In this document: positions 1,290-18,196 of the stretch, in pieces
Layout: every line of letters begins with the position of its first letter
Position numbering within the stretch: the stretch's first letter is position 1
Assembly (NCBI RefSeq): GCF_003334335.1
Contig: NZ_QOWQ01000047.1
Length of the DNA: 31,056 bases
From: Escherichia coli
GTDB taxonomy: Bacteria > Pseudomonadota > Gammaproteobacteria > Enterobacterales > Enterobacteriaceae
Strand: one strand, 5' to 3'
The notes under the pieces: model-generated
Databases searched by the model: none
Told to the model about the DNA's origin: nothing
The model's input: the letters and a program-made list of their open reading frames with translations, nothing else
Position numbers and translations under genes: made by a program

Positions 1290-2021
1290 TCACCTGCCAT
1301 CCAGTAGACGCCCCGGCCCACGACTGCAACCATAATTACGTTGCCCGGAACCGTTATGCAACTTCGTTTCATTTTTCACGAGATAACGGGCTCTCTCCAG
1401 GGCTTTCTGCACCGCTTCCTTGTCACCACGCGTGACCCAGAGCACAGCGGATCCACCAGACTTTTTGTCAGAAGCCTTCCGGGTATCAGAACACCCACTT
1501 GGTAAAGGCGTGTCATCGGAAGAAGGGGGAGCAGCAGGTGATGTCGGTTTACGGGAAGGAGTCCACCTGGAAAAATGGACCAGCCCATCACCCAGCCAGG
1601 GCTCAATACGCAGGGCGCTGCACCATGCCTCCTGGATCAGCGTCGCCAGCGAAGAAGAAACGGTGAAATCCCCGAGCGAGCACCAGGTATCTTTGTTGAG
1701 CAGTAATATCACGTGATAATGTTTCCTGCCATACATCTTGCCGAACTCCCGGCACCAGAAATAACCCAGGCTGGTTGCATGCACACGCTGATTGGCACAT
1801 CTTTTTTTCCGCTGGTAAGCCTGAATTTTGGCTTTCAGGGATTCGAAAAAACGAGAAATCACCGCTGAATCCGGATCGGGCTCCATGATGGTGACAGGCA
1901 TATACTCAGGGAAACGTAAATCCACCCGGATTAACGAGACGGCACGGTGTTGCACCAGGGCACTGTTGAGAATACTTTCAAAACGGGATAACCAGTAATC
2001 ATTGTGTATTGGTTGATTCAT
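1290..2021 (-). CDS. YagK/YfjJ-family protein (inovirus Gp2-like domain), typical of CP4-type islands
   Basis: A 243-aa ORF. Its N-terminal two-thirds (…LIRVDLRFPE…, …RKHYHVILLLNKD…) resemble my recollection of K-12 YfjJ/YagK. It also has an internal Pro/Ser-rich low-complexity stretch. Confidence 0.6.
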   Translation of the reverse strand: MNQPIHNDYWLSRFESILNSALVQHRAVSLIRVDLRFPEYMPVTIMEPDPDSAVISRFFESLKAKIQAYQRKKRCANQRVHATSLGYFWCREFGKMYGRKHYHVILLLNKDTWCSLGDFTVSSSLATLIQEAWCSALRIEPWLGDGLVHFSRWTPSRKPTSPAAPPSSDDTPLPSGCSDTRKASDKKSGGSAVLWVTRGDKEAVQKALERARYLVKNETKLHNGSGQRNYGCSRGPGRLLDGR

Positions 2022-2690
2022 GATGAGAGATCTCCGTTGATTTGGATTGACTTCACATCATTAATCGCCGCGGTAAAACTTTACGGCATCCCACCAATGA
2101 GCAACGCCAATAGCTCCTGATTAAAACGGAATGAATCGTCCCGTAACGAAAAGATAATCCTGCACACGACAGCAAAACGTAAAACAACAGCATGAATGAG
2201 CTAAATGTCTAAAGAAAAACTGCCTTTTCACATTATTTTTCAGCGAGTAATCATACCAGCATCCCTAACATACGAAATCGCATCGTGATCGATCGCTGAT
2301 TCGCCGAACAACTGATCGAATACACCGGAATCTGCACTAACATCCTGATGGGTAACGGAAGACTAAAAAACCAGTGTTCTATTGATTGCACGGAATGCCT
2401 GTGCGCTGGCCTGACCAGTAAGCACAATTCTACGAGTAGTAAGATATCTACTCCAAAACCATGCGCAGTAGCCACCATATGTTGCCAGGGTGAAAAATAA
2501 GCTCAGAGCTATAGGGGAGTAATTCCCGTTAATGTCATCGCCGTACCTCAATCAGCTCACAAACTGGCTGAAACGTTAAGCTGAGGCCTTTATTCTTCAG
2601 ATGTATTTTCCGGTTTACCTGTAAATTATCTTCTGATATTTATCACATTAGTAATTGTGCTGATTATCTACATACTTCAAGGTCTGAAAT

Positions 2691-3221
2691 ATGAAGCTAA
2701 CAGAAGAAAGTCTGAATCTAGTCATTGACATCCTGAATGATTTGATCTGTGAAGGAAAAATGCTGAACGATGTGGAGCGCAGATCTCTGCTCAATGCAGT
2801 TATGGCAATTACAGCGGTAAAAGAACGTTCTGTCGTATCTGTATCATCCCGAAAAGAGCAAAGTAAGAAGGAGAAGAAGGAAAGAGAGATCGATCCTCGT
2901 TTCCCAAATGCTGGTGTGGCATGGAATGAGGCAGACGAGAGTTTATTGCGAGATGTTCTGGAGGATGTACCGGACGATGAAATTGGTAAACACCTTTTCT
3001 GGCTGGCAGAGAAACTAGGGCGAACCCCGTACAGTGTAGCCTGTAAAGTCAGACAAATTAAGAAATTACCTGCAGAATGGAAGGATCAATTTCGTAAAAT
3101 CTCTGACAGGATCCGTAGTTCTGGAATGTCAGTCAGTGAATATCTACAACGCCAGGGACTGTTAAGCCCAGAGTCAGGGGAAGAAAACAATCCTGTCAGT
3201 CATAACAACAATGTAGCTTAA
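2691..3221 (+). CDS. Hypothetical protein with a possible Myb/SANT-like helix-turn-helix segment
   Basis: A 176-aa ORF. Residues ~75-125 read AWNEADESLLRDVLEDVPDDEIGKHLFWLAEKLGRTPYSVACKVRQIKK. This follows the W-x2-E-[DE]-x2-L … W-x-[IL]A-x2-LGRT … spacing of Myb/SANT repeats. A Lys/Glu-rich linker (KEQSKKEKKERE) precedes it. Confidence 0.5.
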   Translation: MKLTEESLNLVIDILNDLICEGKMLNDVERRSLLNAVMAITAVKERSVVSVSSRKEQSKKEKKEREIDPRFPNAGVAWNEADESLLRDVLEDVPDDEIGKHLFWLAEKLGRTPYSVACKVRQIKKLPAEWKDQFRKISDRIRSSGMSVSEYLQRQGLLSPESGEENNPVSHNNNVA

Positions 3222-3234
3222 TCCTGAAGAAGAT

Positions 3235-3261
3235 GAACAGTTTATACTCTTTAAACTGTTC
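3235..3261 (+). terminator. Hairpin downstream of the 2691-3221 ORF: GAACAGTTTA, 7-nt loop, TAAACTGTTC
   Basis: Perfect 10-bp arms at 3235-3244 and 3252-3261, starting 14 nt after the stop codon. Only a weak T-run follows (CCTTAATTTTAG). Confidence 0.4.
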
Positions 3262-3748
3262 CCTTAATTTTAGAAAAACAGTTTGTGTAAGTGCATGCTC
3301 CAACATTCTGAAGGCGTTATTTCTTACAATACATCATAATCATTGGCAGATCCTCATCTGAATCAAAACACCACAACCAATCATCACACTTTTTCTGAAA
3401 AGAGCCTTATGATGAAGATAATCACCTTACGCTGAGAAAAAACACCAGGGCCAGTTAATCACCTTATCAATCTCGCCGTTACAAAATCATCCATAAGCCA
3501 TTTAACAGTGTTATCGCAAACTCACAGTAAATCGCATCAGGTTACCTCAATCGGATTTGAGTTAATTCACTGGGCTTTACGTAAAGATACTTTTCTCAAG
3601 CTAACGTCGAAACTCGAAATCTAAGGAAAGGTTAAACGTAACATCAGTAAAATCGAATAGCAGATTGATTGCTTAAACAGAAAGGTTTTACAGCAGCATT
3701 AAACTGATTTAGTTAACGTAAAGATTTACTAAACTGGATGTGTATAGC

Positions 3749-3880
3749 AATGCTTAACGAAAACACTTGTAGAAGTGTTTATGAAAATACGTGTATGTCT
3801 GGTAAAACACTTAGTAGAAAATACGTGTATAACACTTACTGAAATGCTTAGTAAAAATACTTAGTAAAATACGTGTATAT
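3749..3880. repeat. Iteron-like cluster of short direct and inverted repeats in an ORF-free AT-rich tract
   Basis: AAAATACGTGTAT occurs three times (3784-3796, 3818-3830, 3866-3878). The CTTAGTA core occurs three times (3810-3816, 3847-3853, 3860-3866), with degenerate copies (CTTAACG, CTTGTAG, CTTACTG) often 13 bp apart. A perfect palindrome AAACACTT-GTAG-AAGTGTTT sits at 3761-3780. Confidence 0.75.
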
Positions 3881-4384
3881 AGTATCATACCGACATTCTC
3901 AACATCTTCAGACTTCCATACATACTGGGTGTTAATTTTTCACTTTTACAGCCAGCATGGAGTTTTCTGTCCTAAAAACAGAGCAGATTTACTCTGGAGT
4001 TATTTTCCTGTTCACGTATTCAGTACAGCAGAAATCCCGTGATAACGAGACAGTAAACCATCGTAATCAGCGTCTGTAACTCCATCGCTTTACCCCAGAA
4101 AAGTTAAGCCATATAATGTGAGGGATATAAGTCGTCGTATCCGGTAAGTACAGATAACCACAACATAAGCTCATTCAGTAAATTTTATCTCTGAACAAAC
4201 GACTATGGCATGCTCATTTATACTATTCATAAGAAAGTGTGATTATCTGTAAGCATTAACCATCAAATCATATAACCATACTAAACTGGCGGATCATCAG
4301 CACCATTAGCAGGTAACTTATTGAAATTTTATTATGTGTTTTTTGTTGATAATTAATATGCAATATGAATTTGATATTTTAGAA

Positions 4385-5608
4385 TCATGAACACCATTTA
4401 AAATTACCATCATTAATATCATATAAAAATATATTTTTACTAAAACATGAATTGTATATATTTATTAGCTCAGGAAAATTATCAGGGTTCACCTTCAAAT
4501 TAACCTGAATGTTATGCTTAATTTCACCCAGTAGTTCTTCATGTGTGGATTTTATTATCCCATTATTATAATCGATAAATGCACACATGTTTTTTATGAA
4601 TTCAAAACCTTTTCCTGTATACAGTTTAATGAATGCCACCAGAGCAAACATTTCAAGATGTAGCCATAATGCTACGTTAGTTTTTTGCAAAGTATAAAAA
4701 ATTGAATTCGCCACTTTTTTACTTATTGCTCTTTTATACTGTGATCGAGCAAGATTCAGTAGCGGAAGCTCTCGTTCAATAAATGAATGTGAAAAGACTG
4801 GATAAATTGATGTCGGAAACCTTTCAGGCCTTATGATATTTTCTATTTCCACCATAAATCTATCCATAGAAAGAAAGTCACTTTCTTTTTTTATTCTGGT
4901 ATAGAGACCGCCTTTATTCCTTTCTGAGGTTTGTTTTCGTGCTATCCCCCCTAACAATTTCTCTAATTGTTTATTTATCTTCGTATAATTAAATACAACC
5001 ATTCTTCTTATCATCCTCGGAAGGATAATAATATCAGTGCTTGAATCACTTGAACGGCAATTATTATTTATCCATGCAACTTCAAGTTGCAGTATCGGAA
5101 CATTAACTTTTCTGGGGTGAATATCACTCTGATATCGTTTTTTGTATGCGTTTTCATTAAGATATTCTCTGCTGTAGAGAAACTTATAGCAATATAATCT
5201 GATAATATCTTTTATGTAAAATTTAAATAGTTCACCTGTAACAGATATATGTTTTCTGCTCAGTAACTCCTGTGTATTAAGCCATTCCCGTGACCGAAGC
5301 ACACCCTTGTGAAAACTTTTTCTTACTTGCTTTGAGGCACGGCATTGATGTAATATTTTTGCGTCCTCAATAATTCTCTTTCCCGTTTTATTTTTTGCAG
5401 CATCTCTTACTCCATAAAATATCTCCCGGTCCAGACTTTTGTCATATTTACTGATTATACGACAAATATTCCTGACCCGACGATTCTCTTTATTTCGCTT
5501 CCATAGCTTATAATGATCATCGCATAACCTTAAGGCATTTGCCTCATCAAATTCTGAAACAGGATTACTGCATTTTTTATTCCGACAAATACCTTTGTTT
5601 TTAGCCAT
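4385..5608 (-). CDS. Orphan hypothetical protein (407 aa) from a very AT-rich gene, with an N-terminal Cys/His cluster
   Basis: An uninterrupted 407-codon ORF with a purine-rich GGGAAGAAGAG stretch just upstream of the ATG. The N-terminus has C8-x4-C13 … C29-x2-H32. The rest is Lys/Ile/Asn/Phe-rich. I see no Walker A, DDE, RT or other motif I can recognise. Confidence 0.7.
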   Translation of the reverse strand: MAKNKGICRNKKCSNPVSEFDEANALRLCDDHYKLWKRNKENRRVRNICRIISKYDKSLDREIFYGVRDAAKNKTGKRIIEDAKILHQCRASKQVRKSFHKGVLRSREWLNTQELLSRKHISVTGELFKFYIKDIIRLYCYKFLYSREYLNENAYKKRYQSDIHPRKVNVPILQLEVAWINNNCRSSDSSTDIIILPRMIRRMVVFNYTKINKQLEKLLGGIARKQTSERNKGGLYTRIKKESDFLSMDRFMVEIENIIRPERFPTSIYPVFSHSFIERELPLLNLARSQYKRAISKKVANSIFYTLQKTNVALWLHLEMFALVAFIKLYTGKGFEFIKNMCAFIDYNNGIIKSTHEELLGEIKHNIQVNLKVNPDNFPELINIYNSCFSKNIFLYDINDGNFKWCS

Positions 5609-5708
5609 ACTCTTCTTCCCGTCAATGGAAAAATTTTCACACCCATATTACCTGAATGATAAACCGGATTAGTGTGATCCGGTTCAGTGAAATCAACAGG
5701 ATACCGGT

Positions 5709-7214
5709 ATGCCATTCAGCAATTCTTCCCTCTCCGCGCAAGTGAAATCATATCTGACGTTTCTTCCTGAAGAAATACGCCAGAAAATCCTTGAACATCT
5801 CCACGGTGTTATTCATTACGAGCCCGTGATTGGCATTATGGGTAAATCCGGCACCGGCAAGAGCAGCCTGTGTAATGCCATTTTTCAGTCCCGTATCTGC
5901 GCCACGCATCCCCTGAACGGCTGCACCCGCCAGGCTCATCGTCTTACCCTGCAGCTCGGTGAACGCAGAATGACGCTGGTCGATCTGCCCGGCATTGGTG
6001 AAACACCGCAGCATGATCAGGAATACCGAGCGCTTTATCGTCAGTTACTGCCGGAACTGGATCTGATTATCTGGATCCTGCGGAGTGATGAACGTGCGTA
6101 TGCTGCCGATATTGCCATGCATCAGTTTTTACTGAATGAGGGCGCAGATCCCTCGCGCTTTCTGTTTGTTCTCAGCCATGCCGATCGCATGTTTCCTGCT
6201 GAAGAATGGAATGCCACAGAAAAATGCCCGTCCCGTCACCAGGAACTCTCACTGGCGACAGTAACAGCCCGGGTGGCCACCCTGTTCCCTTCATCATTTC
6301 CGGTACTCCCCGTAGCCGCGCCTGCAGGCTGGAACCTTCCAGCGCTGGTGTCACTGATGATCCACGCGCTGCCACCACAGGCAACCAGCGCAGTTTATTC
6401 ACATATCCGGGGGGAAAACCACTCTGAACAGGCCCGGAAACACGCACAACTGACTTTTGGTGAAACCATCGGGAAAAGTTTTGACGACGCCGTTGCCCGT
6501 TTCAGTTTTCCGCCCTGGATGTTACAGCTTCTGCGCAAAACCCGGGACCGCATTATCCACCTGCTGTTCACTGTGGCATCCTTCTCCACCTCCGCCGGTA
6601 ACTGGGCTGTCAAAAACGGCTGGTGCCAGACCATGACGGAAGATGGTCAGGCGCTGGTAATGCTGAAAAATGGCACGATTGGTATTACCGGCCTGATGCA
6701 GGGATGCCCGAATGGCGTACAGACGCTCCTGGGCAGCCGTATCAGTATTAACGGTAACCTGATCCCCACATCACAAATGTGTAATCAGCAGACGGGATTC
6801 AGGGCTGTTGAGGTGGAAGTCGGACAGGCGCCGGAAATGGTCAAAAAAGCCGTTCACTCCATAGCAGAGCGTGATGTGTCCGTTTTACAGGCATTTGGTG
6901 TACGAATGGAATTCACCCGCGGTGATATGCTGAAGGTCTGTCCGAAATTTGTCACATCACTTGCCGGTTTTTCCCCGAAACAGACACCCGCCATTAATAA
7001 AGATTCCGTCCTGCAGGCTGCCCGGCAGGCATACGCCCGGGAATATGACGAGGAAACAACAGAAACCGCTGATTTTGGCTCTTACGAAGTAAAAGGCAAT
7101 AAGGTTGAGTTTGAAGTGTTCAATCCTGAAGACCGTGCGTACGACAAAGTGACCGTCACGGTTGGTGCTGACGGTAATGCCACCGGTGCCAGCGTTGAAT
7201 TTATCGGAAAATAG
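5709..7214 (+). CDS. YeeP/YkfA/YfjP-family GTPase (residues ~1-288) continuing in frame into a ~210-aa segment of unknown family
   Basis: It has a G1 P-loop GKSGTGKSS, a G3 DLPG and SHAD in place of the G4 motif. K-12 paralogues are recalled as about 287 aa, but here the frame stays open to 501 aa. An internal ATG at 6633 (M309) starts the extra segment. Confidence 0.8.
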
Positions 7215-9500: not shown

Positions 9501-9722
9501 ATGAAAATCATCACCCGTGGTGAAGCCATGCGTATTCACCGTCAGCATCCAGCATCCCGTCTTTTTCCGTTCTGTACCGGTAAATACCGCTGGCACGGTA
9601 GCACGGATACGTATACCGGCCGTGAAGTACAGGATATTCCCGGTGTGCTGGCCGTGTTTGCTGAACGCCGTAAGGACAGTTTTGGTCCGTATGTCCGGCT
9701 GATGAGCGTCACCCTGAACTGA
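9501..9722 (+). CDS. DUF987-family protein (YeeT/YkfH-like)
   Basis: 73 aa (MKIITRGEAMRIHRQHP…), in the conserved position between the radC-like gene and the antitoxin gene. Confidence 0.85.
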   Translation: MKIITRGEAMRIHRQHPASRLFPFCTGKYRWHGSTDTYTGREVQDIPGVLAVFAERRKDSFGPYVRLMSVTLN

Positions 9723-9801
9723 GTCTGGAAGGGCATTCAGAAGAGCAGAATTATCGCCACCACCGGACCATTCTTAACCAATTTTCTGTGAGGATTTTAT
9801 C

Positions 9802-10170
9802 GTGTCAGACACATTCTCCGGGACAACGCATCCCGATGACAATCACGACCGCCCCTGGTGGGGACTGCCCTGCACCGTGACGCCCTGTTTTGGTTCCCGT
9901 CTGGTACAGGAAGGCAACCGGTTGCATTACCTTGCCGACCGCGCCGGTATCAGAGGGCGGTTCAGCGACGCGGATTCGTACCACCTGGACCAGGCCTTTC
10001 CGCTGCTGATGAAACAACTGGAACTCATGCTCACCAGCGGTGAACTGAATCCCCGCCATCAGCATACCGTCACGCTGTATGCAAAAGGGCTGACCTGCGC
10101 AGCCGACACCCTCGGCAGTTGTGGCTACGTTTATATGGCTGTTTATCCGACGCCCGAAACGAAAAAGTAA
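9802..10170 (+). CDS. cbeA: Type IV antitoxin CbeA (YeeU/YfjZ/YafW family)
   Basis: 122 aa with a GTG start. It is near-identical to recalled YeeU (…DNHDRPWWGLPCTVTPCFG.RLVQEGNRLHYLADRAGIRG…). Confidence 0.9.
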   Translation: MSDTFSGTTHPDDNHDRPWWGLPCTVTPCFGSRLVQEGNRLHYLADRAGIRGRFSDADSYHLDQAFPLLMKQLELMLTSGELNPRHQHTVTLYAKGLTCAADTLGSCGYVYMAVYPTPETKK

Positions 10171-10259
10171 CTCTCCAGAATAACCTTCTGCTCCGGCCTG
10201 GTGCTTTCACCACGCCACTTTTCCATTTTTCATCTCTGCATATCAGGAAAATCTTCAGT

Positions 10260-10637
10260 ATGAAAACATTACCTGTATTACCCGGGCTGGCGGCCAGTTC
10301 ACGCCCGTCTCCGGTTGAAATCTGGCAGACACTGCTCACCCGACTGCTGGATCAGCACTACGGCCTTACGCTGAATGACACACCATTCGCTGATGAACGT
10401 GTGATTGAGCAGCATATTGAGGCAGGCATTTCACTGTGTGATGCGGTGAACTTTCTCGTTGAAAAATACGCGCTGGTACGTACCGACCAGCCGGGATTCA
10501 GCGCCTGTACCCGTTCTCAGTTAATAAACAGTATTGATATCCTCCGGGCACGCCGGGCAACCGGCCTGATGACACGCGACAACTACAGAACGGTAAATAA
10601 CATTACCCTGGGTAAACATCCGGGGGCGAAACAATGA
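10260..10637 (+). CDS. cbtA: Type IV toxin CbtA (YeeV/YkfI/YpjF family), a cytoskeleton-targeting toxin
   Basis: The track ORF 10119-10637 contains an internal ATG at 10260. From there MKTLPVLPG.AASSRPSPVEIWQ…DQHYGLTLNDTPFADERVIEQHIEAGISLCDAVNFLVEKY matches recalled CbtA (~124 aa). The 47 codons upstream overlap the cbeA 3' end and intergenic sequence. Confidence 0.9.
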   Translation: MKTLPVLPGLAASSRPSPVEIWQTLLTRLLDQHYGLTLNDTPFADERVIEQHIEAGISLCDAVNFLVEKYALVRTDQPGFSACTRSQLINSIDILRARRATGLMTRDNYRTVNNITLGKHPGAKQ

Positions 10638-11056
10638 AACAGGCCCTGACGCTGGAAGCCGACAGCATTAATGCGCAGGCGCTGAACATGGGGCGCATTG
10701 TCGTTGACGTCGATGGTATTGAGCTCGCTGAACTGATTAACAAAGTCGCTGAAAACGGTTATTCACTCCGCGTGGTGGATGAACGTGACGCTACCGAAAC
10801 ACCGGCGACTTCTGCCAGCCCTCATCAGTTGCCGGAAGACAATACAGTGATACAGAGCGTGATGCCATTAACCACTGAAACAGCGCTGGATATCCTCATT
10901 GCGTGGCTGCAGGACAATATCGACTGCGAATCGGGAATTATCTTTGACAACGATGAGGATAAAACGGATTCGGCAGCACTGTTGCCCTGTATCGAACAGG
11001 CCCGGGAGGATGTCCGGACTCTTCGTCATCTGCAGCTTCTGCACCAGAACCGGTAA
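10634..11056 (+). CDS. YeeW-like protein (DUF5983-type), translationally coupled to cbtA
   Basis: 140 aa. Its start codon overlaps the toxin stop (ATGA at 10634-10637), and it sits where yeeW does in CP4-44. Confidence 0.7.
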   Translation: MKQALTLEADSINAQALNMGRIVVDVDGIELAELINKVAENGYSLRVVDERDATETPATSASPHQLPEDNTVIQSVMPLTTETALDILIAWLQDNIDCESGIIFDNDEDKTDSAALLPCIEQAREDVRTLRHLQLLHQNR

Positions 11057-11140: not shown

Positions 11141-11983
11141 ATGTCAGACATCACAATCTCCCGTCCGGAAGTGGTCACCGGGCATACGGACGTTATCTGC
11201 TCAATCAGTATCCGCCACATTCTGGCTGTACGAAAGAGTACACTGCTGCAAATCGACACACTTATCCGGCAACTGGCTGAAATATCAGCAATGACAGAAA
11301 GTATTGGCGGTAAAGCCGCCCCGGACTGGGCCATGAAACAGGATTTTCGCTGCGGCTGCTGGCTGATGGAGAAACCGGAAACCGCAATGAAAGCCATCAC
11401 ACGCAATCTCGATCGCGAAATCTGGCGTGACCTGATGCAACGTTCAGGGATGCTTTCCTTAATGGATGCACAGGCCCGTGATACATGGTACCGGTCACTG
11501 GAGCACGATAATTTTCCGGAAATCAGTGAAGCGAACATTCTGAGCACATTTGAACAACTACACCAGAATAAGGATGAGGTGTTTGAGCGAGGGGTGATCA
11601 ACGTCTTCAGGGGACTGAACTGGAATTACAAAACCAATTGCCCCTGCAAATTTGGCAGTAAAATTATCGTCAACAACCTAGTGAGGTGGGACCGATGGGG
11701 GTTTCATCTTATCACCGGGCAACAGACTGACCGACTCGTCGACCTGGAAAGAATGCTACATCTGTTCAGCGGCAAACCGATCCCCGACAACCGGGAAAAC
11801 ATCACTATTCGTCTGGATGGTCACATCCAGTCCGTTCAGGGTAAAGAGCGCAATGAAGACGAGATGTTCATCATTAAATACTTTAAGAAGGGATCTGCAC
11901 ACATCACTTTCAAAAGGCTGGAACTGATTGACAGAATTAACGATATAATAGCCAGGTACTTTCCTTCTGTGCTCTCAGCCTGA
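11141..11983 (+). CDS. DUF4942 domain-containing protein
   Basis: 280 aa. It resembles what I recall as the conserved terminal gene of CP4-type islands downstream of cbtA/yeeW. Confidence 0.7.
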   Translation: MSDITISRPEVVTGHTDVICSISIRHILAVRKSTLLQIDTLIRQLAEISAMTESIGGKAAPDWAMKQDFRCGCWLMEKPETAMKAITRNLDREIWRDLMQRSGMLSLMDAQARDTWYRSLEHDNFPEISEANILSTFEQLHQNKDEVFERGVINVFRGLNWNYKTNCPCKFGSKIIVNNLVRWDRWGFHLITGQQTDRLVDLERMLHLFSGKPIPDNRENITIRLDGHIQSVQGKERNEDEMFIIKYFKKGSAHITFKRLELIDRINDIIARYFPSVLSA

Positions 11984-12093
11984 TCCCGAGTGTGATTCCC
12001 TTTCGATATCAAAAGGGACTGCGGGTATAATTGAGGGTATATTTTTAATCAAACCAAATAAATTATATTAATATCAATATGATAAAAGAAATT

Positions 12094-12115
12094 TTCGATT
12101 CCGAGTCCGGCACCA
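12094..12115 (+). repeat. Island attachment-site repeat: a 22-nt copy of the tRNA-Phe 3' end (TTCGATTCCGAGTCCGGCACCA)
   Basis: It matches the recalled 3' end of E. coli tRNA-Phe (…GGTTCGATTCCGAGTCCGGGCACCA), lacking one G of the GGG run. The upstream sequence is AT-rich island DNA, not the tRNA body, so this is not a functional tRNA. Confidence 0.8.
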
Positions 12116-12124
12116 AATTCATAT

Positions 12125-12155
12125 AAACGGACCTCCACGGAGGTCCGTTTTTCGT
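12125..12155 (+). terminator. Native pheU rho-independent terminator, retained next to the att repeat
   Basis: AAACGGACCT (12125-12134) pairs perfectly with AGGTCCGTTT (12141-12150) and is followed by TTCGTTT. Confidence 0.8.
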
Positions 12156-12731
12156 TTCAGGACGCCACGATTTAAGCGTTCTGCCTCCAAATCAATTCTA
12201 CCGAACTCAACCAGATTCTCCCCACATCACCAGCAATTTGCGGGCATATCCCAATTCGGGAAAATTTGTTCCTGAGCTATAGCACTAACTGACGTGAAAT
12301 GTCGTGCGGCCCCGTGATGCTGTTGAACGTCAAATGACGTCATCAGGAGCGTAACGCATCCATAAAGCACAACACCGGTCTGAACGGCGACTGATGAGAT
12401 TTTCTGAATGAGAACAAAGAGAAATGTATCAGTTCGCTTGCTCATGCAAAGACTAACAATCCATTAAAATAGTAAGTGCTCCGGACAATTTTCCATGGAT
12501 TATTTTCTGAACATTTTTCTTTGGCAAAGATGATGAATTTTGATGGTAAGGAATATTACTTCTGGTTCTCAGTAAAATCCTTTCGTAATACTATGTAATC
12601 AAGAAGTTTATGGCTGGTAAAAATAACGTCTTGCATTCACCAATAATATGTAAATAAACCCATCTATAGATGGTAAAAATAGGTTGTGGCAATTATCATT
12701 GCATCATTCCCTTTTCGAATGAGTTTCTATT

Positions 12732-14270
12732 ATGCAACAACCTGTAGTTCGCGTTGGCGAATGGCTTGTTACTCCGTCCATAAACCAAATTAGCCGCAAT
12801 GGGCGTCAACTTACCCTTGAGCCGAGATTAATCGATCTTCTGGTTTTCTTTGCTCAACACAGTGGCGAAGTACTTAGCAGGGATGAACTTATCGATAATG
12901 TCTGGAAGAGAAGTATTGTCACCAATCACGTTGTGACGCAGAGTATCTCAGAACTACGTAAGTCATTAAAAGATAATGATGAAGATAGTCCTGTCTATAT
13001 CGCTACTGTACCAAAGCGCGGCTATAAATTAATGGTGCCGGTTATCTGGTACAGCGAAGAAGAGGGAGAGGAAATAATGCTATCTTCGCCTCCCCCTATA
13101 CCAGAGGCGGTTCCTGCCACAGATTCTCCCTCCCACAGTCTTAACATTCAAAACACCGCAACGCCACCTGAACAATCCCCAGTTAAAAGCAAACGATTCA
13201 CTACCTTTTGGGTATGGTTTTTTTTCCTGTTGTCGTTAGGTATCTGTGTAGCACTGGTAGCGTTTTCAAGTCTTGATACACGTCTTCCTATGAGCAAATC
13301 GCGTATTTTGCTCAATCCACGCGATATTGACATTAATATGGTAAATAAAAGTTGTAACAGCTGGAGTTCCCCGTATCAGCTCTCTTACGCGATAGGCGTG
13401 GGTGATTTGGTGGCGACATCACTTAACACCTTCTCCACCTTTATGGTGCATGACAAAATCAACTACAACATTGATGAACCGAGCAGTTCCGGTAAAACAT
13501 TATCTATTGCGTTTGTTAATCAGCGCCAATACCGTGCTCAACAATGCTTTATGTCGATAAAATTGGTAGACAATGCAGATGGTTCAACCATGCTGGATAA
13601 ACGTTATGTCATCACTAACGGTAATCAGCTGGCGATTCAAAATGATTTACTGGAGAGTTTATCAAAAGCGTTAAACCAACCGTGGCCACAACGAATGCAG
13701 GAGACGCTCCAGAAAATTTTGCCGCATCGTGGTGCGTTATTAACTAATTTTTATCAGGCACATGATTATTTACTGCATGGCGATGATAAATCATTGAACC
13801 GTGCCAGTGAATTATTAGGTGAGATTGTTCAATCATCCCCAGAATTTACCTACGCGAGAGCAGAAAAAGCATTAGTTGATATCGTGCGCCATTCTCAACA
13901 TCCTTTAGATGAAAAACAATTAGCAGCACTGAACACAGAAATAGATAACATTGTTACACTGCCGGAATTGAACAACCTGTCCATTATATATCAAATAAAA
14001 GCGGTCAGTGCTCTGGTAAAAGGTAAAACAGATGAGTCTTACCAGGCGATAAATACTGGCATTGATCTTGAAATGTCCTGGCTAAATTATGTGTTGCTTG
14101 GCAAGGTTTATGAAATGAAGGGGATGAACCGGGAAGCAGCTGATGCATATCTCACCGCCTTTAATTTACGCCCAGGGGCAAACACCCTTTACTGGATTGA
14201 AAATGGTATATTCCAGACTTCTGTTCCTTATGTTGTACCTTATCTCGACAAATTTCTTGCTTCAGAATAA
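12732..14270 (+). CDS. cadC: CadC, a membrane-integrated ToxR-like transcriptional activator of cadBA
   Basis: 512 aa. It matches recalled K-12 CadC throughout: an N-terminal winged-helix domain, one TM segment (FWVWFFFLLSLGICVALVAF) and a periplasmic sensor. The PPP motif at codons 120-122 (13089-13097) is the known EF-P-dependent stall site. Confidence 0.97.
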   Translation: MQQPVVRVGEWLVTPSINQISRNGRQLTLEPRLIDLLVFFAQHSGEVLSRDELIDNVWKRSIVTNHVVTQSISELRKSLKDNDEDSPVYIATVPKRGYKLMVPVIWYSEEEGEEIMLSSPPPIPEAVPATDSPSHSLNIQNTATPPEQSPVKSKRFTTFWVWFFFLLSLGICVALVAFSSLDTRLPMSKSRILLNPRDIDINMVNKSCNSWSSPYQLSYAIGVGDLVATSLNTFSTFMVHDKINYNIDEPSSSGKTLSIAFVNQRQYRAQQCFMSIKLVDNADGSTMLDKRYVITNGNQLAIQNDLLESLSKALNQPWPQRMQETLQKILPHRGALLTNFYQAHDYLLHGDDKSLNRASELLGEIVQSSPEFTYARAEKALVDIVRHSQHPLDEKQLAALNTEIDNIVTLPELNNLSIIYQIKAVSALVKGKTDESYQAINTGIDLEMSWLNYVLLGKVYEMKGMNREAADAYLTAFNLRPGANTLYWIENGIFQTSVPYVVPYLDKFLASE

Positions 14271-14343
14271 GTAACTCCGGGTTGATTTATGCTCGGAAAT
14301 ATTTGTTGTTGAGTTTTTGTATGTTCCTGTTGGTATAATATGT

Positions 14344-14373
14344 TGCGGCAATTTATTTGCCGCATAATTTTTA
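14344..14373 (+). terminator. Probable cadC terminator
   Basis: TGCGGCAA (14344-14351) pairs with TTGCCGCA (14357-14364) around a 5-nt loop, followed by TAATTTTTA. Confidence 0.55.
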
Positions 14374-14412
14374 TTACATAAATTTAACCAGAGAATGTCA
14401 CGCAACCCATTG

Positions 14413-14429
14413 TAAACATTAAATGTTTA
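14413..14429. promoter_or_regulatory. 17-bp palindrome TAAACATT-A-AATGTTTA in the cadBA promoter region, probably part of CadC site Cad1
   Basis: Perfect 8-bp arms, centred 214 nt upstream of the cadB ATG. The published Cad1 site (-144 to -112 from the TSS) is recalled as containing an inverted repeat. I have not verified the exact correspondence. Confidence 0.5.
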
Positions 14430-14634
14430 TCTTTTCATGATATCAACTTGCGATCCTGATGTGTTAATAAAAAACCTCAAGTTCTCACTTACAGAAACTT
14501 TTGTGTTATTTCACCTAATCTTTAGGATTAATCCTTTTTTCGTGAGTAATCTTATCGCCAGTTTGGTCTGGTCAGGAAATAGTTATACATCATGACCCGG
14601 ACTCCAAATTCAAAAATGAAATTAGGAGAAGAGC

Positions 14635-15969
14635 ATGAGTTCTGCCAAGAAGATCGGGCTATTTGCCTGTACCGGTGTTGTTGCCGGTAATATGATGGGG
14701 AGCGGTATTGCATTATTACCTGCGAACCTAGCAAGTATCGGTGGTATTGCTATCTGGGGTTGGATTATCTCTATTATTGGTGCAATGTCGCTGGCGTATG
14801 TATATGCCCGACTGGCAACAAAAAACCCGCAACAAGGTGGCCCAATTGCTTATGCCGGAGAAATTTCCCCTGCATTTGGTTTTCAGACAGGTGTTCTTTA
14901 TTACCATGCTAACTGGATTGGTAACCTGGCGATTGGTATTACCGCTGTATCTTATCTTTCCACCTTCTTCCCAGTATTAAATGATCCTGTTCCGGCGGGT
15001 ATCGCCTGTATTGCTATCGTCTGGGTATTTACCTTTGTAAATATGCTCGGCGGTACTTGGGTAAGCCGTTTAACCACTATTGGTCTGGTGCTGGTTCTTA
15101 TTCCTGTGGTGATGACTGCTATTGTTGGCTGGCATTGGTTTGATGCGGCAACTTATGCAGCTAACTGGAATACTGCGGATACCACTGATGGTCATGCGAT
15201 CATTAAAAGTATTCTGCTCTGCCTGTGGGCCTTCGTGGGTGTTGAATCCGCAGCTGTAAGTACTGGTATGGTTAAAAACCCGAAACGTACCGTTCCGCTG
15301 GCAACCATGCTGGGTACTGGTTTAGCAGGTATTGTTTACATCGCTGCGACTCAGGTGCTTTCCGGTATGTATCCGTCTTCTGTAATGGCGGCTTCCGGTG
15401 CTCCGTTTGCAATCAGTGCTTCAACTATCCTCGGTAACTGGGCTGCGCCGCTGGTTTCTGCATTCACCGCCTTTGCGTGCCTGACTTCTCTGGGCTCCTG
15501 GATGATGTTGGTAGGCCAGGCAGGTGTACGTGCCGCTAACGACGGTAACTTCCCGAAAGTTTATGGTGAAGTCGACAGCAACGGTATTCCGAAAAAAGGT
15601 CTGCTGCTGGCTGCAGTGAAAATGACTGCCCTGATGATCCTTATCACTCTGATGAACTCTGCCGGTGGTAAAGCATCTGACCTGTTCGGTGAACTGACCG
15701 GTATCGCAGTACTGCTGACTATGCTGCCGTATTTCTACTCTTGCGTTGACCTGATTCGTTTTGAAGGCGTTAACATCCGCAACTTTGTCAGCCTGATCTG
15801 CTCTGTACTGGGTTGCGTGTTCTGCTTCATCGCGCTGATGGGCGCAAGCTCCTTCGAGCTGGCAGGTACCTTCATCGTCAGCCTGATTATCCTGATGTTC
15901 TACGCTCGCAAAATGCACGAGCGCCAGAGCCACTCAATGGATAACCACACCGCGTCTAACGCACATTAA
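14635..15969 (+). CDS. cadB: CadB lysine:cadaverine antiporter (APC family)
   Basis: 444 aa, a polytopic membrane protein with an AGGAGAAGAG RBS. It matches recalled K-12 CadB and sits in the cadC-cadB-cadA context. Confidence 0.97.
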   Translation: MSSAKKIGLFACTGVVAGNMMGSGIALLPANLASIGGIAIWGWIISIIGAMSLAYVYARLATKNPQQGGPIAYAGEISPAFGFQTGVLYYHANWIGNLAIGITAVSYLSTFFPVLNDPVPAGIACIAIVWVFTFVNMLGGTWVSRLTTIGLVLVLIPVVMTAIVGWHWFDAATYAANWNTADTTDGHAIIKSILLCLWAFVGVESAAVSTGMVKNPKRTVPLATMLGTGLAGIVYIAATQVLSGMYPSSVMAASGAPFAISASTILGNWAAPLVSAFTAFACLTSLGSWMMLVGQAGVRAANDGNFPKVYGEVDSNGIPKKGLLLAAVKMTALMILITLMNSAGGKASDLFGELTGIAVLLTMLPYFYSCVDLIRFEGVNIRNFVSLICSVLGCVFCFIALMGASSFELAGTFIVSLIILMFYARKMHERQSHSMDNHTASNAH

Positions 15970-15985
15970 TTAAAAGTATTTTCCG

Positions 15986-16032
15986 AGGCTCCTCCTTTCA
16001 TTTTGTCCCATGTGTTGGGAGGGGCCTTTTTT
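15986..16032 (+). terminator. Intercistronic stem-loop with a T-run between cadB and cadA, possibly a partial terminator or mRNA-stability element
   Basis: AGGCTCCTCC (15986-15995) pairs with GGAGGGGCCT (16018-16027) with one G-U pair. A 22-nt loop is followed by TTTTTT, just before the cadA RBS (GGAG at 16037-16040). Confidence 0.4.
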
Positions 16033-16048
16033 ACCTGGAGATATGACT

Positions 16049-18196
16049 ATGAACGTTATTGCAATATTGAATCACATGGGGGTTTATTTTAAAGAAGAAC
16101 CCATCCGTGAACTTCATCGCGCGCTTGAACGTCTGAACTTCCAGATTGTTTACCCGAACGACCGTGACGACTTATTAAAACTGATCGAAAACAATGCGCG
16201 TCTGTGCGGCGTTATTTTTGACTGGGATAAATATAATCTCGAGCTGTGCGAAGAAATTAGCAAAATGAACGAGAACCTGCCGTTGTACGCGTTCGCTAAT
16301 ACGTATTCCACTCTCGATGTAAGCCTGAATGACCTGCGTTTACAGATTAGCTTCTTTGAATATGCGCTGGGTGCTGCTGAAGATATTGCTAATAAGATCA
16401 AGCAGACCACTGACGAATATATCAACACTATTCTGCCTCCGCTGACTAAAGCACTGTTTAAATATGTTCGTGAAGGTAAATATACTTTCTGTACTCCTGG
16501 TCACATGGGCGGTACTGCATTCCAGAAAAGCCCGGTAGGTAGCCTGTTCTATGATTTCTTTGGTCCGAATACCATGAAATCTGATATTTCCATTTCAGTA
16601 TCTGAACTGGGTTCTCTGCTGGATCACAGTGGTCCACACAAAGAAGCAGAACAGTATATCGCTCGCGTCTTTAACGCAGACCGCAGCTACATGGTGACCA
16701 ACGGTACTTCCACTGCGAACAAAATTGTTGGTATGTACTCTGCTCCAGCAGGCAGCACCATTCTGATTGACCGTAACTGCCACAAATCGCTGACCCACCT
16801 GATGATGATGAGCGATGTTACGCCAATCTATTTCCGCCCGACCCGTAACGCTTACGGTATTCTTGGTGGTATCCCACAGAGTGAATTCCAGCACGCTACC
16901 ATTGCTAAGCGCGTGAAAGAAACACCAAACGCAACCTGGCCGGTACATGCTGTAATTACCAACTCTACCTATGATGGTCTGCTGTACAACACCGACTTCA
17001 TCAAGAAAACACTGGATGTGAAATCCATCCACTTTGACTCCGCGTGGGTGCCTTACACCAACTTCTCACCGATTTACGAAGGTAAATGCGGTATGAGCGG
17101 TGGCCGTGTAGAAGGGAAAGTGATTTACGAAACCCAGTCCACTCACAAACTGCTGGCGGCGTTCTCTCAGGCTTCCATGATCCACGTTAAAGGTGACGTA
17201 AACGAAGAAACCTTTAACGAAGCCTACATGATGCACACCACCACTTCTCCGCACTACGGTATCGTGGCGTCCACTGAAACCGCTGCGGCGATGATGAAAG
17301 GCAATGCAGGTAAGCGTCTGATCAACGGTTCTATTGAACGTGCGATCAAATTCCGTAAAGAGATCAAACGTCTGAGAACGGAATCTGATGGCTGGTTCTT
17401 TGATGTATGGCAGCCGGATCATATCGATACGACTGAATGCTGGCCGCTGCGTTCTGACAGCACCTGGCACGGCTTCAAAAACATCGATAACGAGCACATG
17501 TATCTTGACCCGATCAAAGTCACCCTGCTGACTCCGGGGATGGAAAAAGACGGCACCATGAGCGACTTTGGTATTCCGGCCAGCATCGTGGCGAAATACC
17601 TCGACGAACATGGCATCGTTGTTGAGAAAACCGGTCCGTATAACCTGCTGTTCCTGTTCAGCATCGGTATCGATAAGACCAAAGCACTGAGCCTGCTGCG
17701 TGCTCTGACTGACTTTAAACGTGCGTTCGACCTGAACCTGCGTGTGAAAAACATGCTGCCGTCTCTGTATCGTGAAGATCCTGAATTCTATGAAAACATG
17801 CGTATTCAGGAACTGGCTCAGAATATCCACAAACTGATTGTTCACCACAATCTGCCGGATCTGATGTATCGCGCATTTGAAGTGCTGCCGACGATGGTAA
17901 TGACTCCGTATGCTGCATTCCAGAAAGAGCTGCACGGTATGACCGAAGAAGTTTACCTCGACGAAATGGTAGGTCGTATTAACGCCAATATGATCCTTCC
18001 GTACCCGCCGGGAGTTCCTCTGGTAATGCCGGGTGAAATGATCACCGAAGAAAGCCGTCCGGTTCTGGAGTTCCTGCAGATGCTGTGTGAAATCGGCGCT
18101 CACTATCCGGGCTTTGAAACCGATATTCACGGTGCATACCGTCAGGCTGATGGCCGCTATACCGTTAAGGTATTGAAAGAAGAAAGCAAAAAATAA
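16049..18196 (+). CDS. cadA: CadA inducible lysine decarboxylase
   Basis: 715 aa from the ATG at 16049 (MNVIAILNHMGVYFKEEP…), which matches recalled K-12 CadA. The 13 extra codons in the track ORF (16010) lack support, and the RBS lies upstream of 16049. Confidence 0.97.
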   Translation: MNVIAILNHMGVYFKEEPIRELHRALERLNFQIVYPNDRDDLLKLIENNARLCGVIFDWDKYNLELCEEISKMNENLPLYAFANTYSTLDVSLNDLRLQISFFEYALGAAEDIANKIKQTTDEYINTILPPLTKALFKYVREGKYTFCTPGHMGGTAFQKSPVGSLFYDFFGPNTMKSDISISVSELGSLLDHSGPHKEAEQYIARVFNADRSYMVTNGTSTANKIVGMYSAPAGSTILIDRNCHKSLTHLMMMSDVTPIYFRPTRNAYGILGGIPQSEFQHATIAKRVKETPNATWPVHAVITNSTYDGLLYNTDFIKKTLDVKSIHFDSAWVPYTNFSPIYEGKCGMSGGRVEGKVIYETQSTHKLLAAFSQASMIHVKGDVNEETFNEAYMMHTTTSPHYGIVASTETAAAMMKGNAGKRLINGSIERAIKFRKEIKRLRTESDGWFFDVWQPDHIDTTECWPLRSDSTWHGFKNIDNEHMYLDPIKVTLLTPGMEKDGTMSDFGIPASIVAKYLDEHGIVVEKTGPYNLLFLFSIGIDKTKALSLLRALTDFKRAFDLNLRVKNMLPSLYREDPEFYENMRIQELAQNIHKLIVHHNLPDLMYRAFEVLPTMVMTPYAAFQKELHGMTEEVYLDEMVGRINANMILPYPPGVPLVMPGEMITEESRPVLEFLQMLCEIGAHYPGFETDIHGAYRQADGRYTVKVLKEESKK

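Follow-up and report, generated by a model that had tools for sequence, protein, structure and literature searches.

A putative zinc-ribbon, HNH-derived protein family encoded at a conserved junction of CP4-type islands

Results

The X gene

The DNA analyzed here is a stretch of 31,056 nucleotides (hereafter the window) on contig NZ_QOWQ01000047.1 of the Escherichia coli assembly GCF_003334335.1, and the subject of this study is a gene on its minus strand, at 4385..5608, which together with its product is called X. Residues of the product are numbered with the initiator methionine counted as Met1. The open reading frame (ORF) begins with ATG, is preceded by a purine-rich leader (...GGGAAGAAGAGT-ATG) and ends with a stop codon at 4385-4387. 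It encodes a basic protein of 407 amino acids (isoelectric point of 9.8), the 407-aa allele of the island-specific family described below. A first-pass annotation, made from the letters of the window alone, had reported a clean 407-codon minus-strand reading frame with a purine-rich leader and a sharp compositional discontinuity at its border, and these observations were confirmed. The guanine plus cytosine (GC) content of X is 32.5% (38.7, 31.6, and 27.2% at the three codon positions), compared with 52.9% for the neighboring GTPase ORF and 47.1% for the whole window, and in sliding windows it ranges from 26 to 39% within X and from 52 to 58% within the GTPase gene.

Distribution and conservation of the family

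Among 5426 complete E. coli genomes, 976 (18%) carry X, with up to four copies per genome. The gene is near full length in 968 of these 976 genomes, so its copies are not mostly frameshifted, and its annotation is that of an intact "hypothetical protein". When 5.8 billion proteins were searched, three large E. coli clusters of 1199-1527 members each were recovered, as well as approximately six clusters sharing 33-37% identity with X from Klebsiella, Citrobacter, and metagenomes. Among 1.84 billion cluster representatives, searched exhaustively with a HMMER profile, only 43 proteins matched at E<=0.001. Members were also identified in Salmonella, Enterobacter, Kluyvera, Providencia, and Buttiauxella, and the family is represented in at least eight enterobacterial genera overall. 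No member was found among 50,697 phage records or among 72,556 plasmid records. The family is thus small and confined to Enterobacterales, where it occurs only in CP4-type islands, and the designation of X as an orphan in the first-pass annotation does not hold.

X gave no match in Pfam, NCBIfam, or PHROGs, no family of the PADLOC-DB v2 defense models matched it at E<=10, and no study of the protein was found in the literature by accession or by island gene names. In agreement with the first-pass annotation, which could assign the gene to no described family, X belongs to an undescribed protein family without a Pfam, NCBIfam, PADLOC, or PHROG model, and no profile or structure match to a characterized housekeeping or structural family was found. 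One homolog from Klebsiella michiganensis (P0016, WP_260745693.1) carries the UniRef name "Reverse transcriptase"; however, searches of Pfam and NCBIfam gave no reverse transcriptase domain or motif in X or its homologs, and NCBI lists the protein as hypothetical.

At 31-36% identity, 76 alignment columns are invariant, including the four putative zinc ligands discussed below, and the invariant blocks comprise SREWxNTQEL, SREYL, LEV, IRRMV, LPL, LExFA, and YNSCFS. Comparison of X with the 96.7% identical copy from MS7163 (20 synonymous and 20 non-synonymous changes) gave a ratio of non-synonymous to synonymous substitution rates (dN/dS) of 0.24, and the corresponding value for the neighboring GTPase gene is 0.19. 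X is under purifying selection. The string RYQSDIH (residues 158-164), which the first-pass annotation had rightly judged insufficient for a HEPN assignment, is located in a non-conserved stretch where neither the R nor the H is kept, and no Pfam HEPN match was obtained; a HEPN identity for X was rejected.

A conserved junction in islands of several genera

All nine genomic contexts of the X clade show the same gene order, both outside E. coli (L002, L004, L005, L006, L008, L025, and L026) and within it (L001 and L015). The X-clade gene is divergent from a gene for a GTPase of the MMR_HSR1 family across approximately 95-100 bp, or from a WYL gene in the case of L025, and in nine of nine contexts it is followed by AlpA and/or by a YfjJ/Gp2-type Rep gene. 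Homologs at 30-37% identity from Klebsiella, Citrobacter, Salmonella, and metagenomes keep the same junction. In E. coli, a probe spanning the X/GTPase junction was contiguous in 971 genomes, that is, in all X carriers, and the GTPase upstream region was the same in 971 of these 971 junction-bearing genomes.

A more distant tier of the family, in which an HNH motif is intact (see below), was found in five of five distinct contexts directly after DUF3987/YfjI or AlpA. The HNH-intact gene is followed, in a co-directional arrangement, by the GTPase gene or by a DUF932-antirestriction-RadC-CbeA/CbtA-DUF4942 block, and in Providencia its start is overlapped by AlpA by 8 nt. No Gp2/YfjJ gene was seen in the five HNH-intact contexts, whereas the degenerate clade does have Gp2/YfjJ in its contexts, placed after AlpA or after a longer gap in L002, L006, and L026. 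In one metagenomic island (L024), ParM/StbA-like and StbB-like partition genes are located between the HNH-intact member and the GTPase gene (9560-10889), an arrangement hinting that islands of this kind could also be episomal.

The first-pass annotation had placed X in a variable cargo slot, and the sharp step in GC content that it noted might be read as a sign of recent acquisition. Neither reading is supported. The same step was observed at four other loci from Klebsiella, Citrobacter, and metagenomes, where the GC content of the X homologs is 28-33% and that of the adjoining GTPase genes 45-55%, and the step is therefore ancient and inherited, and not a sign of recent insertion. Homologs did not recur in variable slots but at one fixed junction, and recognizable defense cargo in the islands (type I restriction-modification, TIR, McrBC, and GmrSD) lies outside the X-AlpA-Gp2 module. 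Judged by its gene order, X is a backbone gene of a CP4-type integrative island lineage and not cargo; of the proposal that it was laterally acquired cargo, what stands is that it is located in horizontally acquired island DNA.

The exception to this arrangement is CP4-57 of E. coli K-12 (L021, 8352-14356), where the interval between yfjJ and yfjP is occupied by abpB, abpA, yfjM, rnlA, and rnlB, and where neither a member nor a remnant of the X family was found. The slot is in this respect polymorphic, as the first-pass annotation had supposed, since the YfjJ-YfjP interval varies between islands. The K-12 reference strain is atypical for this junction, which explains why the family has no y-name.

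Allelic exchange of X in E. coli islands

Comparison of the window with six other E. coli islands by blastn (L015-L020) delimited an allelic cassette at 4008..5633, composed of X, approximately 375 bp of AT-rich 3' flank, and 25 bp of leader. The breakpoints are sharp (~4008/4035 to 5633), and the cassette is exchanged as a block for other alleles of the family, between flanks that are 88-98% identical in most blocks and 75-98% identical in the conserved non-coding block described below. In approximately 900 further genomes, homology to the junction probe begins at window position 5634 (probe position 326). All five sampled E. coli islands lacking X (L016-L020) hold a divergent member of the X family at that spot, and an empty site was not seen among them.

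Two additional allele classes were identified in these islands. L017 and L020 carry a 376-aa allele in which the zinc ribbon is present and which matches the family profile over its full length (hmmsearch, E=2e-56). L016, L018, and L019 carry a 310/320-aa allele that matches the profile at E=1e-15 to 1e-17 and is without the zinc ribbon. This shorter allele is accompanied by a gene of 269/284 aa, arranged tail to tail with it, so that the two are convergent and the companion overlaps the 3' end of the allele by 4 bp; the companion/allele pairs are located at 5231-6040(+) / 6037-6969(-) in L016 and at 2657-3511(+) / 3508-4470(-) in L019. The C-terminus of the companion gave sub-threshold matches to ribbon-helix-helix (RHH) and RepB-RCR_reg profiles in both of its versions, which are themselves 27% identical.

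The 407-aa allele was found at 1069 places, the 376-aa allele at 516, and the 310/320-aa allele at approximately 820, while the 5' region of the GTPase gene was found at 2506 places. Nearly every such E. coli island can be accounted for by one of the alleles on these counts, with adjacency checked in the sampled cases. Taken together, X-family alleles are carried by roughly a third or more of the complete E. coli genomes.

Salmonella members of 465-468 aa (P0047 and P0085) possess a second N-terminal zinc-ribbon module (MAKCVRRKCELPVSSVPEAKQKRLCEKHY...) that is nearly identical to that of the 376-aa allele class represented by P0078 (alignment A2, columns 1-60). This extra zinc ribbon suggests recombination between allele classes.

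Domain architecture and loss of the HNH site

The N-terminus of X contains a zinc-ribbon-like module (5513..5587, minus strand), followed by a long basic helix, with C8, C13, C29, and H32 as the putative ligands. All four are invariant in nine close and mid-distance homologs. In a set of 27 sequences reaching down to ~15% identity, C8 and C29 remain invariant and C13 and H32 are conserved in at least 90%, in support of the C-x4-C…C-x2-H motif of the first-pass annotation as compatible with a zinc ribbon. This conservation is far above chance, and four Cys/His ligands in two knuckles are the arrangement expected of a zinc ribbon or treble clef. Based on these features, the N-terminal module of X is a putative zinc ribbon.

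The exhaustive profile search also recovered the distant tier of the family, with proteins of 370-440 aa that share 15-21% identity with X. Comparison of the window-clade alignment (A4, 15 sequences) with that of the distant tier (A3, 12 sequences) by hhalign gave a probability of 99.9% and E=4.7e-34 over 367 columns, and by this profile alignment the X clade and the distant tier are homologous across their full length. The distant tier contains a segment of the form L-E-x-C-H-x-Y-P-x3-G-G-x-N-x3-N-x2-I-A-P-x3-N-R, in which H, G, N, N, and P are invariant (the asparagines being N168 and N177). An intact H-N-N motif is kept in relatives from Klebsiella, Citrobacter, Kluyvera, and Providencia. 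When a 63-column profile of the segment was searched against PDB, 12 sequences were matched at E<=10, and 11 of the 12 are HNH nucleases (E=0.26-1.4). The matches include McrA, several proteins designated "HNH nuclease domain", the Geobacter HNH protein 4H9D, Cas8f-HNH, IscB, and Cas9, and all of these nucleases align in register at their catalytic His and Asn. Single segments of the distant tier searched against Pfam matched HNH_4 in eight of 12 cases (best 3.4e-4), HNH_5 in five, and HNH in one, and no other family was matched; all of these matches are below the gathering score. With the profile of the distant tier over its full length, a sequence search of PDB returned nothing, and X itself gave no match to the HNH profiles of Pfam.

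The corresponding segment of X (LQLEVAWINNNCRSSDSSTDIIILPRMIRRMV, residues 173-204; 4997..5092, minus strand) aligns column for column with the HNH-intact tier and has the character of a degenerate HNH (beta-beta-alpha) segment, with W179, D192, and R201 in the H, N, and N columns. The column of the catalytic His, which is invariant in the distant tier, is occupied by W, F, Y, or K in the X clade, and the two Asn columns by D192 and R201, both of which are invariant in this clade. The 376-aa and 310/320-aa alleles of E. coli are likewise degenerate at the HNH positions. Judged from the aligned residues, the canonical HNH catalytic site is gone in X, in the whole X clade, and in all three E. 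coli allele classes. The statement of the first-pass annotation that X has no HNH motif is therefore right for the residues, but the degenerate segment at residues 173-204 was missed. By the alignment with the intact tier, X descends from a protein combining a zinc ribbon with an HNH domain, and since X lacks the catalytic residues, its proper label is HNH-derived and not HNH nuclease.

An AlphaFold model of X built on 27 sequences reached a predicted local distance difference test (pLDDT) value of 82.8 and a predicted template modeling score (pTM) of 0.71, whereas a model built on nine sequences was too poor to be used (pLDDT 57.7). The pLDDT is ~90 for residues 11-40, within the zinc-ribbon-like module. 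In the HNH-like segment the model places strands at residues ~175-179 and ~193-197 and a helix at ~198-218 (pLDDT 82-95), so that a beta-hairpin followed by an alpha-helix, as in the HNH core, is predicted for X. The remainder of the model consists of a low-confidence Lys-rich linker (residues ~50-100), a helical region, and an all-helical C-terminal domain. This last domain (residues 234-386; 4451..4909, minus strand) carries the residues R293, E319, and Y385, which are invariant family-wide and belong to the LPL, LExFA, and YNSFFS blocks. Foldseek searches of the model against PDB and BFVD gave nothing meaningful, and no structural neighbor was found for the C-terminal domain.

Flanking DNA and neighboring genes

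A shared control region of 75 bp, common to all E. coli alleles, lies at 5634..5708 between X and the GTPase gene and contains a box and a dyad. The box CCATATTACC at 5643-5652 (on the X strand GGTAATATGG, i.e. GGTAATAT(A/G)G) resembles a -10 element and is invariant in six of six loci from several genera, although the proteins encoded at these loci are only ~35% identical. The dyad AACCGGAT-N7-ATCCGGTT at 5662-5684 has 8-bp arms and is identical in the E. coli islands whatever the allele. In other genera the arms differ but are still complementary in three to four of the six loci, and several of the loops read TTGACA. A simple scan for sigma-70 promoters made no call in the X/GTPase intergenic region of the window. 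The dyad was considered as an operator specific to the X allele, and this was rejected because dyad and box do not differ among islands with the three E. coli alleles.

On the other side of X, a conserved non-coding AT-rich block of 660 bp (3352..4007) is 75-98% identical in all sampled islands, regardless of allele. Within it, at ~3753-3881, are direct repeats of 13/25 nt with the unit AAAA(C/T)ACTTAGTA / ...ACGTGTAT, the copy number of which varies between islands. The array is iteron-like and may be an origin of replication or a binding array. An indel at 2199-3351, present in the window, L001, and L019 and missing from L015-L018 independently of the X-family allele, contains an ORF of 176 aa (2691-3221, WP_000778605.1) without a Pfam match and with a weak match to the PHROG "D5-like regulator" (E=0.003). 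The next backbone gene downstream of X (1290..2021, minus strand) encodes a YfjJ/YagK-type protein of the "inovirus Gp2 family" that is similar to rolling-circle Rep proteins (Pfam YagK_YfjJ_C, 6e-35, and REP_ORF2-G2P). An AlpA remnant downstream of X was considered and rejected, as tblastn with five AlpA proteins found none in the window; in E. coli islands, AlpA is located beyond Gp2. A scan of positions 2000-6000 for non-coding RNA gave a chance snoRNA match as its only result (E=0.8).

The divergent neighbor of X is the GTPase gene (5709..7214, plus strand; Pfam MMR_HSR1), which in the window is a fusion ORF of 501 aa, compared with 294 aa in other islands. The fusion was produced by a deletion of ~1.07 kb relative to L001, in which a WYL/HTH (helix-turn-helix) regulator gene was lost as well, or of ~143 bp when L016 is the reference. 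The DUF4942 gene (11141-11983) is the last of the island, with an integrase remnant and cadCBA adjoining, and positions 11984-16880 of the window match L001 at 98.7%. This right end is compatible with an island at the pheU site, as the first-pass annotation had proposed; pheU itself is not in the window, in which no transfer RNA gene was found.

Discussion

A possible function in the island life cycle

The X family marks the junction of two conserved island modules, and an HNH nuclease ancestor has, by the alignments above, been inactivated in several of its lineages. The first of these modules appears to serve excision and replication and comprises AlpA, the YfjI/DUF3987 primase-helicase, the YfjJ/Gp2-like Rep, and the repeat-bearing non-coding block, and the second is the operon of GTPase-DUF932-antirestriction-RadC-CbeA/CbtA-DUF4942. 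We tentatively favor the view that X is a non-catalytic DNA-binding factor for the excision, replication, regulation, or mobilization of the island itself. This view is based on the AlpA, primase-helicase, Rep, and repeat neighbors, on the basic N-terminus with its putative zinc ribbon, on the RHH-like companion found where the ribbon is missing, and on the confinement of the family to one type of element. The zinc ribbon would mediate binding to island DNA, which X would recognize or organize for regulation, replication, or mobilization, and the shared divergent control region and the neighboring repeat array are the candidate targets. The occurrence of the RHH-like companion with the ribbon-less allele is consistent with DNA binding being required.

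Several observations weigh against a life-cycle function of this kind. The family is hyper-divergent, yet the dyad, the box, and the repeats are conserved across alleles, which is awkward for a sequence-specific partner, and CP4-57 of K-12 shows that the family is dispensable for island persistence. In addition, the HNH assignment of the distant tier rests on matches that are sub-threshold yet concordant, and the contrast between HNH status and the presence of Gp2 is effectively a single evolutionary split and only suggestive.

Alternative functions of X

The hyper-divergent alleles between conserved flanks could also be the outcome of an arms race, in which case X would be a rapidly diversifying effector of defense or conflict that acts against phages or plasmids or interferes with a helper, a modified version of the conflict hypothesis of the first-pass annotation. 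The nuclease ancestry of the family would be in line with this, as would the abpBA and rnlAB genes held by the same YfjJ-YfjP interval in K-12 CP4-57 and the large amount of defense cargo nearby in islands (type I restriction-modification, TIR, McrBC, and Dnd). However, the recognizable part of this cargo is located outside the X-AlpA-Gp2 module, PADLOC gave no match, and the nuclease residues are gone in all E. coli alleles, while selection within the allele class is of the ordinary purifying kind with a dN/dS near that of the GTPase. Defense genes are usually promiscuous in location, whereas this family occurs at only one position of one element type and was absent from the phage and plasmid records, and we therefore regard a defense function as unlikely. 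A master regulator comparable to phage cI or to Stl of the Staphylococcus aureus pathogenicity islands (SaPI), which would repress the main operon until a helper-derived signal arrives, seems more doubtful still. Allele divergence would in that case reflect different inducers. The divergent orientation of X, the control region of ~100 bp that it shares with the operon, in which the dyad occupies the -35 position next to the invariant -10-like box, and the extreme allele divergence beside conserved flanks all speak for such a regulator, and the large C-terminal helical domain of the model might be a sensor. Against this, no HTH or other known repressor domain was found with Pfam, the dyad and box are the same for the three E. 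coli alleles, including the one without a ribbon, the HNH-intact tier is co-directional with the operon and not divergent from it, and an HNH origin would be unusual for a repressor.

We consider it very improbable that X is a decaying gene for a free-standing HNH homing endonuclease, that is, a selfish insert at a fixed site between island genes that is now degenerating. Such a gene would leave HNH ancestry in an AT-rich gene with sharp breakpoints between conserved blocks, alternative alleles at one site, and a catalytic motif that some lineages have kept and others have lost, all of which were observed. Decay is nevertheless difficult to reconcile with purifying selection and with a full-length ORF in 968 of 976 genomes, and the ~370 residues outside the HNH segment are strongly conserved across genera at 30% identity. 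Moreover, none of the five sampled islands has an empty site, and the operon-like linkage to AlpA and DUF3987 is conserved.

On a wider view, the CP4-type islands found in most E. coli might be unrecognized helper-dependent elements resembling satellites or integrative and mobilizable elements. The X family would then be a hyper-variable specificity module able to detect a helper phage or plasmid or to interfere with it, or else to mark island DNA for replication or packaging, and the allele classes (407, 376, and 310/320 aa and HNH-intact) would define incompatibility or helper-range groups. We offer this as speculation that is probably wrong in its present form. Few mobile elements of E. coli are as common as the CP4-type islands, which carry virulence, toxin-antitoxin, and defense cargo, while their regulation, replication, and movement are poorly understood, and the X family has been overlooked because it is absent from K-12. 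Control of island activation, replication, or helper specificity by X, if real, would open a way to study how these elements work, and a conflict function, if it exists, would make X a conflict factor of a new kind. As the evidence stands, X is an interesting uncharacterized backbone gene and not a demonstrated new system.

Comparison with known systems

The HNH superfamily is the only one to which X could be linked. The HNH or beta-beta-alpha-Me nucleases, including E. coli McrA (6GHC), Geobacter 4H9D, Cas8f-HNH, and the HNH domains of Cas9 and IscB, are related to the family through the motif of the distant tier, with which they are in register, and X has a homologous segment with the corresponding predicted fold. 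X differs from them in carrying W179, D192, and R201, and its remaining ~370 residues, with the zinc ribbon and the helical domains, are without a counterpart in the solved structures searched. Free-standing HNH homing endonucleases are known, e.g., the Mob proteins of phage T4. These resemble X in their HNH ancestry, AT-richness, intergenic-like position between conserved genes, and mosaic alleles, whereas X is an intact gene on which purifying selection acts, much of its product outside the nuclease segment is conserved, and no empty sites were seen in the sampled islands.

The anti-phage systems AbpAB and RnlAB of K-12 CP4-57 occupy the same interval between the YfjJ-type and YfjP-type genes. 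They have no sequence relationship to X, and abpBA and rnlAB are cargo, whereas X is syntenic across genera. Like cI of phages and Stl of SaPI, X adjoins the main operon and has a short control region in common with it, and its alleles diverge beside conserved flanks. In contrast to these repressors, X has no HTH, the candidate operator is the same for every allele, and the orientation is not kept in the HNH-intact tier.

In gene arrangement there is a likeness to the phage-inducible chromosomal minimalist islands (PICMI), phage satellites in which replication depends on prim, while alpA is both necessary and sufficient for excision (PMC10803314). In PICMI, genes without an assigned function (up1 and unnamed genes between alpA and prim) are located inside an int-alpA-DUF3987 primase module (PMC10803314), and the HNH-intact members of the X family directly follow AlpA or DUF3987. 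The likeness is one of arrangement, and X itself is apart from DUF3987 and is paired with a Gp2-type Rep. By analogy, the int-alpA-DUF3987 likeness of CP4-type islands to satellites may serve as a lead.

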